DNA of 64,000 nt, from NCBI RefSeq assembly GCF_016026235.1, contig NZ_CP065613.1; one strand, given 5' to 3'. The notes beneath the pieces were generated by a model. It was not told the origin of the DNA, made no database searches, and saw only the letters and a program-made list of their open reading frames with translations. This document shows, piece by piece, positions 6,870 to 7,207 of the stretch. The stretch is from Escherichia coli (GTDB lineage: Bacteria; Pseudomonadota; Gammaproteobacteria; Enterobacterales; Enterobacteriaceae). Position numbers and translations under genes: made by a program. Every line of letters starts with the position of its first letter. Position 1 is the stretch's first letter.

Positions 6870-7207
6870 TCAGGACATAAACAACTGAAATTGATGGCTG
6901 GCATGACGAGGGATGCAGATGCTGATTTCATTACCCCCGGTGATTACTAAAGGAGAGGCTAAAACGATTTTATTCCCCTGGTATGTGTATCCACCAGTAG
7001 AACCCTTCGTTGCCCGAATGCTGGCAGGAACTGTTGGCAGAACGGCAACATTTTTTTTGTCGTTGACCTCACCATGTCGATCACTGTGCCTGTATCCCAC
7101 CTTACTGGCTGACAACCCCACTATGCCGCTGGTCTGTAAATCCCTCATATCTCTCCTCGCGCGCAATTTAAAGAACCGTTATTTCTCAAGAATTTTCAGG
7201 GACTAAA

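Follow-up and report, generated by a model that had tools for sequence, protein, structure and literature searches.

The analysed window, a 64,000-nt stretch of an Escherichia coli genome (contig NZ_CP065613.1), corresponds to the acid fitness island of this species, in which gadE (a 100% match to the RefSeq gadE of many E. coli genomes) is followed on the same strand by mdtE (Table 1). The spacer between the two genes occupies positions 6870..7207 (338 bp), reaching from the end of the gadE stop codon to the mdtE start codon, and both its limits and the identities of the flanking genes had been given correctly in the initial annotation. The region 6300-7300 was recovered from 5413 of the 5426 complete E. 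coli genomes (with many copies being 100% identical), and a comparison of the spacer with that of K-12 MG1655 revealed two substitutions (positions 6881 and 6968) and no gaps; neither substitution affects the terminator described below, and the second one falls on the first annotated nucleotide of gadF (T in the window, C in K-12). Under the overall explanation put forward here, the spacer is very likely composed of the gadE 3'UTR and the mdtE leader.

Several peculiarities of the flanking sequences were noted along the way. RefSeq PGAP records (WP_001340474.1) begin mdtE at Met17 (window 7256, MLTACDDK...), by which the lipoprotein signal peptide is lost; in K-12 the gene starts at 7208 (MNRRRKLLIPLLFCGAMLTAC...), and the PGAP start at 7256 looks wrong. 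In cryptic-clade Escherichia (loci L005, L006 and L008) a 16-nt insertion is found right after the gadE stop (at approximately window 6865-6870), together with TAA instead of TAG as stop codon. Furthermore, E. coli gadE-mdtE DNA was encountered on a contig of Flavobacterium paronense CECT 8460 (L009) and on a 466-bp contig of Streptomyces sp. DH24 (L010), both of which almost certainly represent E. coli contamination of those assemblies; the spacer on the former is near-identical to that of K-12, with one extra T in the T-run (T9).

Table 1. Features of the gadE-mdtE region and further RNA elements of the window (identity: window versus E. albertii and three cryptic-clade genomes).
Feature	Position	Strand	Identity	Basis and remarks
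ArrS antisense sRNA, gadE 5' leader	5961-6030	-		K-12 b4704; terminator 5991-5967, found by the simple scan
gadE CDS	6342..6869	+	73-76% (third codon positions)	175 aa, stop TAG 6867-6869; ORF and sequence; K-12 b3512
98-codon antisense ORF	6870..7166	-		PGAP 'hypothetical protein' in many genomes; judged spurious
Part of the gadE 3'UTR upstream of the annotated GadF 5' end	6884..6967	+	86-88%	as conserved as GadF
97-codon ORF	6913..7206	+		crosses the GadF terminator; stop TAA 7204-7206, 1 nt before the mdtE ATG
GadF sRNA	6968..7058	+	87-89%	K-12 b4718, 91 nt; K-12 RefSeq ncRNA gadF 3658992..3659082 mapped without gaps
GadF stem-loop 1	6973..7002	+		fold; holds CCCCUGG (6975-6981) and CACCAG (6992-6997), presumed seeds
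Rfam ES205 (RF02754), 72-nt form of GadF	6987..7058	+		covariance model match
Intrinsic terminator hairpin	7009..7049	+		41 nt; local folding, Rfam model
U8 tract of the terminator	7051..7058	+		sequence; one A follows the hairpin, then eight U
C-rich, unstructured, poorly conserved stretch	7059..7120	+	51-65%	indels of +9 and +12 nt
Conserved mdtE-proximal leader	7121..7207	+	84-93%	Shine-Dalgarno AGGGA 7198-7202 (sequence)
mdtE CDS	7208..8365	+		385 aa, K-12 start, ATG at 7208
GadY	12837-12950			Rfam match
Three tandem rdlD antitoxin RNAs	52051-53082			Rfam matches
naRNA4 (CssrE)	60999-61080			Rfam match
tRNA	61176-61249	-		Rfam match

Local folding of the spacer RNA revealed a hairpin that is built of a 6-bp base (GUUGCC/GGCAAC, including four G-C pairs) and a 9-bp inner stem capped by a 3-nt loop, the two stems being separated by a 4x4 internal loop, with a folding energy of -20.5 kcal/mol in the context of positions 6990-7062 and of -19.0 kcal/mol for the hairpin alone. 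This G+C-containing hairpin is followed by a U-tract, as is typical of an intrinsic terminator, and according to published K-12 data (obtained on the same terminator sequence) an in vivo RNA 3' end is situated within that tract: Term-seq placed a 3' end at K-12 position 3659081 (+ strand; flanking sequence TCGTTGCCCGAATGCTGGCAGGAACTGTTGGCAGAACGGCAACATTTTTTTTGTCGTTGAC), which corresponds to window position 7057 (M63 glucose sheet of supplementary file 1 in Adams et al. 2021, PMC7815308), albeit in only one of the three Term-seq conditions and with a modest count of 2485 reads. The initial annotation had described the spacer as lacking any terminator-like hairpin, a statement that fails in the face of the fold with its U8 tract, of the Rfam match and of the annotated and experimentally mapped 3' ends at 7058 and 7057; of the contrary findings it had named, a terminator revealed by folding has now been obtained, alongside the mapped 3' end.

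A consensus terminator scan of positions 5500-8500 (whose rule demands one uninterrupted stem with a 3-8 nt loop, and a T-run that begins 0-2 nt behind that stem) returned no plus-strand terminator, and it overlooked the hairpin at 7009-7049 because the internal loop violates the rule of an uninterrupted stem; the same loop is probably the reason why the structure was also missed by eye. Moreover, the fold of the whole 338-nt spacer was no more stable than those of shuffled sequences (z = -0.24), so that the terminator is revealed by local folds only. Elsewhere in the window, the terminator of the antisense RNA ArrS coincides with a very strong Term-seq 3' end (3657985, 982,952 reads); ArrS itself produced no Rfam match, neither in the whole window at gathering scores nor in positions 5500-8500 at E-values up to 1.

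The terminator is part of a known small RNA. The K-12 gadF gene maps onto the spacer in such a way that the last base of its annotation is the last U of the tract (window 7058), and the corresponding 91-nt RNA has a minimum free energy of -26.4 kcal/mol (z = -2.24). In a scan against all Rfam families, the spacer region gave ES205 as its single strong match (105 bits with the gathering score at 86, E = 9.5e-19, all 72 model positions covered); the consensus structure of this family is the hairpin 7009-7049 plus the U-tail, and the match lies where RF02754 is expected, that is, in the gadE 3'UTR, on the gadE strand and upstream of mdtE. K-12 GadF (b4718; Melamed et al. 2016) and ES205 (RF02754; Rau et al. 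2015) thus share the locus, the 3' end and the hairpin plus U8 found here, and as the window is identical to K-12 GadF over positions 6969-7058 (differing at 6968 and, upstream, at 6881), a functional difference from K-12 GadF is not expected. The proposal of a 3'UTR-derived sRNA in the spacer was in this respect well founded, although the accompanying reasoning (that the absence of a terminator would fit GadF) was wrong, the terminator being the 3' end of GadF. We stress that GadF/ES205 and its terminator within the gadE-mdtEF operon are already known.

ES205 was defined by RNA-seq as a transcript of 72 nt, with conservation in both Escherichia and Shigella (Rau et al. 2015, PMC4676190), while GadF was named on the basis of K-12 data that included a northern blot and Hfq co-immunoprecipitation (Melamed et al. 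2016, PMC5145812) and was later shown again by northern blot and grouped with the 3'UTR sRNAs released by RNase E (Iosub et al. 2020, PMC7213987). The GadF target motifs CCAGGGG and CUGGUG were derived from Hfq CLASH (Iosub et al. 2020, PMC7213987). The sequences CCCCUGG and CACCAG, which make up both arms of GadF stem-loop 1 and do not vary across Escherichia, may pair with these motifs, being their complements. On cfa, GadF had only a 1.2-fold effect and did not bind in vitro (Bianco et al. 2019).

With regard to the origin of the small RNA, GadF is considered to be processed from the gadE mRNA because it is sensitive to a 5'-phosphate-dependent exonuclease (Melamed et al. 2016, PMC5145812), and in the same study the GadF probe also picked up the full-length gadE transcript. 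Alternatively, GadF/ES205 could be a primary transcript of a promoter of its own within the gadE 3'UTR: the 5' end of ES205 (window 6987) is the same as an earlier mapped transcription start (Rau et al. 2015, PMC4676190), which conflicts with pure processing, and by its sequence TGgTATGTG at 6979-6987 is similar to an extended -10 element. This element, however, overlaps the 5' end rather than sitting upstream of it, the promoter scan contained no plus-strand site at 6900-6990, and both the exonuclease-induced drop of GadF (with detection of full-length gadE mRNA by its probe) and its place among the RNase E-released sRNAs speak for processing; we therefore regard a primary transcript as unlikely.

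In order to follow the spacer through evolution, we used a comparison set of one genome per species (100,044 species), which yielded six informative Escherichia lineages with gadE. The identities (Table 1) are highest in the two parts of the gadE 3'UTR and in the mdtE-proximal leader, where they exceed those of gadE third codon positions, and are lowest immediately downstream of the terminator. Neither the outer stem of the hairpin nor the U8 tract varies across lineages, the inner-stem substitutions convert G-U pairs into G-C or A-U pairs, and the predicted energy is -17.3 to -18.9 kcal/mol in the five other Escherichia lineages (versus -19.0 kcal/mol here), all of which indicates that the hairpin has been maintained in evolution. 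Double compensatory changes in the hairpin pairs were found in none of the six lineages (i.e. covariation proper is absent), and the case for the structure is accordingly made by its energy, by the Rfam model and by the 3' end that was mapped, instead of by covariation.

The conservation of positions 6884-6967, upstream of the annotated GadF end, may be explained in either of two ways: either precursors or longer isoforms of GadF have a role, or a conserved open frame has its start region here. The alifold of positions 6870-6972 showed weak structure and no compensatory pairs. A GAGGG-ATG-N3-ATG motif is present at 6908-6921, within the conserved part.

At the level of complete E. coli genomes, a 53-nt core with T8 occurs exactly in 5158 of 5413 (95%). 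Variants of the T-run (7051-7058; loci L011 and L016) were counted directly in these genomes, because gene-caller bias spoils the use of homologue counts as frequencies, and amounted to 239/5413 (4.4%) for T7, 3/5413 for T9 and 0/5413 for T6. Truncated ORF products of the T6 type are present in the protein database despite the lack of this allele among the complete genomes. Moreover, one strain (USDA-ARS-USMARC-49610, NZ_CP104123.1; L014) carries a 12-nt deletion (GGCAGAACGGCA, at approximately window 7036-7047) that takes out the 3' arm of the hairpin, whose energy would fall from -19 to -5 kcal/mol; by this prediction, the strain holds a natural terminator-less allele.

Downstream of the terminator, the RNA leading into mdtE is of a different character. 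The GC skew ranges from -0.30 to -0.37 over positions 7060-7179, and the folds are weaker than those of shuffled sequences (z = +1.55 for 7059-7240 and z = +2.06 for 7120-7230). The leader hence provides about 80 nt or more of C-rich, G-poor and unstructured untranslated RNA, as described for rut sites, and as judged from composition it would suit the loading of Rho. The table of Rho regions of Adams et al. 2021 (PMC7815308) holds no gadE or mdtE entries; it was obtained in LB at OD 0.5, where the operon is hardly expressed. A block at 7121-7160 (CTATGCCGCTGGTCTGTAAATCCCTCATA), or at 7121-7150 when delimited more narrowly, was observed to be 96-97% conserved per column across Escherichia, which exceeds GadF, and stable structure offers no explanation for it. 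An anti-Shine-Dalgarno pairing proposed by alifold (7135-7159 with the mdtE Shine-Dalgarno and start) was rejected, as all of its pairs are invariant, the single-sequence fold lacks the structure and the region is under-structured in comparison to shuffles.

Two further reading frames called in the spacer have little to recommend them. The antisense ORF at 6870..7166 is interrupted by in-frame stops in E69 (three) and in E. albertii (one), has a coding score of -6.5 (below all true coding chunks), gave no match in the Pfam and NCBIfam scans and is flagged as a frameshifted pseudogene in T7 and T9 strains; the stops in two Escherichia lineages bear out its earlier dismissal as non-coding. An 18-codon ORF (6894..6950) was rejected as well, its start being lost in E. 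whittamii and E1V33 and its stop in four lineages.

The plus-strand ORF that crosses the terminator poses a more intricate case. Its frame (6913..7206) is open, and closed by the same stop, in six of six lineages (K-12, MOD1-EC7003, E69, E. whittamii, E. albertii and E1V33), even though positions 7059-7120 are so poorly conserved; given an open reference, the probability of all being open is 0.015 (alignment columns shuffled within segments), and 0 stops were gained in this frame, as opposed to 2 and 5 independent events in the other frames, these frame-conservation statistics being post hoc and based on few independent lineages. The dN/dS is mildly below 1 (0.42-0.53, versus 0.7-1.15 in the other frames), the interspecies indels (+9 and +12 nt) are multiples of three, and a GAGGG (6908-6912) precedes ATG 6919 by 6 nt, with both being conserved. 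On the other hand, the ORF has a coding score (Markov) of -4.6 bits/100 nt, under that of every 291-nt chunk cut from the window's 35 long ORFs (mean +8.9, sd 4.3), and its substitutions are spread evenly over the codon positions (17/14/18 up to 20/18/25) without the third-position excess of a protein-coding gene. Scans with Pfam and NCBIfam returned no match, and the AlphaFold model (from an 11-sequence alignment) had a mean pLDDT of 50, no residue at 70 or above and a pTM of 0.33. Furthermore, the ORF is absent from the K-12 annotation and rarely called by gene callers, the Ribo-seq supplement of novel ORFs in Stringer 2021 has no entry for the spacer region, and a homologue search retrieved Escherichia variants only, many of them truncated at the T-run. 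The T7 allele cuts the ORF to 50 codons, and T9 breaks the frame too. We conclude that the plus-strand ORF is probably non-coding; the initial annotation's view that it 'looks non-coding' is the likelier reading, even though the frame is open beyond expectation.

One could reconcile these observations by assuming that the frame (6913/6919..7206) is a translated leader, in which the act of translation matters and not the peptide. In the leader-ORF attenuator of E. coli pyrBI, translation across the terminator suppresses termination. The plus-strand ORF likewise spans a terminator hairpin and U-tract upstream of a regulated gene; here, unlike in pyrBI, there is no nucleotide-sensing pause logic, the ORF has 97 codons, and coding statistics and evidence of translation are absent. 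Under this assumption, ribosomes over 7009-7058 would hinder the hairpin in the manner of the pyrBI attenuator, keep Rho off the C-rich leader and, finishing 1 nt before the mdtE start codon, couple the translation of mdtE. The open frame, the stop statistics, the indels, the dN/dS, the conserved start signals, the placement of the TAA and the unstructured mdtE leader with C exceeding G are all compatible with such an arrangement, but the coding score, the even codon-position substitutions, the lack of family and fold, the truncating alleles, the silence of the annotation and of the Ribo-seq supplement, and the post hoc nature of the statistics (with few independent lineages) weigh against it, and we deem a translated leader improbable. 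The fuller proposition, that the frame is open because it is translated and that ribosome traffic chooses between GadF termination and read-through with mdtE coupling, is in our estimation very improbable. If it were true, the untranslated frame would allow the hairpin, termination and GadF, while the translated one would suppress the hairpin and Rho loading in favour of read-through and mdtE coupling, and one stretch of RNA would be an sRNA and, at the same time, a leader whose translation brings about antitermination ahead of multidrug efflux pump genes. Of all points of this analysis, only the open frame that spans the terminator, and its conservation, has the potential for discovery.

As to how mdtEF is transcribed, a lacZ fusion of the gadE-mdtE spacer had no promoter activity under aerobic or anaerobic conditions ('data not shown') and mdtEF transcription was found to begin at the gadE promoters (Deng et al. 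2013, PMC3708157), while YdeO induction raises mdtE and mdtF together with gadE (YdeO paper). Co-transcription of gadE and mdtE by RT-PCR (Hirakawa 2006, as cited in Deng et al. 2013, PMC3708157) lends support to the co-transcription of gadE-mdtEF assumed in the initial annotation. The assumption of unobstructed transcription does not hold: with a terminator in place, co-transcription means read-through. As promoter activity is absent from the spacer and co-transcription is reported, mdtEF expression would therefore proceed via read-through of a leaky terminator, and we infer that this read-through is partial and is the sole route to mdtEF. Our literature search found no paper that quantifies read-through or termination efficiency at the GadF terminator.

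The competing possibility is that a promoter in the spacer after the terminator (e.g. an EvgA-dependent one) accounts for most mdtEF transcription, in which case gadE transcription would end altogether at the terminator and gadE and mdtEF would form separate units. EvgA was reported to bind the gadE-mdtE spacer in EMSA (Nishino and Yamaguchi 2002, as cited in Deng et al. 2013, PMC3708157), and given this binding a conditional promoter in the spacer is possible; no function is assigned to the conserved block at 7121-7160, and mdtEF is a separate unit in one table of the YdeO paper. Against this stand the inactive spacer-lacZ fusion, the RT-PCR across the gadE-mdtE junction, the promoter scan of 5500-8500 (no sigma-70-like site, that is, no such hexamer pair, on the plus strand of the spacer) and an EvgA-box search that, with up to 3 mismatches to the consensus allowed, found nothing in the spacer. 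Taken together, these observations render an own mdtEF promoter highly improbable. An EvgA-box match with 2 mismatches to the consensus (TTCTTACGCATGAAAGAA) was seen inside mdtE at 7862-7879 (+ strand); chance alone would yield about 0.45 matches over the whole window when up to 3 mismatches are allowed. Finally, a terminator-free spacer, through which polymerase would run unobstructed from gadE into mdtEF and in which GadF would be made without a terminator, finds some backing in the empty simple scan, the whole-spacer fold and the reported co-transcription, but is refuted by the local fold with its U8, the ES205 match above the gathering score, the annotated gadF end and the Term-seq 3' end (the scan having failed only on account of the internal loop) and retains next to no credibility.

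The explanation that best accommodates the data, and which we hold with high confidence, is that the GadF terminator lies inside the gadE-mdtEF operon and is read through to mdtEF. Transcription from the gadE promoters would cross gadE into its 3'UTR, where the conserved terminator (7009-7049 plus U8 at 7051-7058) would halt part of the polymerases, and a ribonuclease cut near 6968 (or 6987) would free the Hfq-binding GadF/ES205 of approximately 72-91 nt. In this RNA, stem-loop 1 would present the target-pairing sequences, and the terminator hairpin with its U-tail would serve as the usual Hfq-binding module. The polymerases that read through would cross a promoter-less, C-rich and unstructured leader of 149 nt into mdtEF. 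The terminator would consequently have a dual role, forming the 3' end of GadF and holding mdtEF transcription to a fraction of that of gadE. The terminator, the identity of GadF/ES205 and their conservation come from the present analysis, whereas the 3' end, Hfq binding, processing, the absence of a spacer promoter and co-transcription come from the cited papers.

GadF resembles CpxQ (from cpxP) and SdhX (from sdhCDAB-sucABCD), which are type II 3'UTR Hfq sRNAs excised from mRNA 3' ends; a circuit of this type is described in Melamed et al. 2016 (PMC5145812) and in a review. Common to all of them is that the intrinsic terminator of the mRNA is reused as the Hfq-binding 3' module and that the sRNA acts in the same pathway as the upstream protein. 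Unlike in CpxQ and SdhX, the terminator shared by GadF is an intra-operon one, with the downstream mdtEF depending on read-through. A comparable arrangement within an operon is that of SroC in the gltI-gltJ spacer. For the annotation of the acid fitness island, this implies that the gadE-mdtE spacer should be recorded with GadF and its terminator, and not as terminator-free. For the biology of E. coli, a single intrinsic terminator would both supply an acid-stress sRNA with its 3' end and act as a throttle on the genes of the MdtEF efflux pump, and since one terminator would serve both GadF and mdtEF, its strength may therefore set the ratio of regulator to sRNA to pump.
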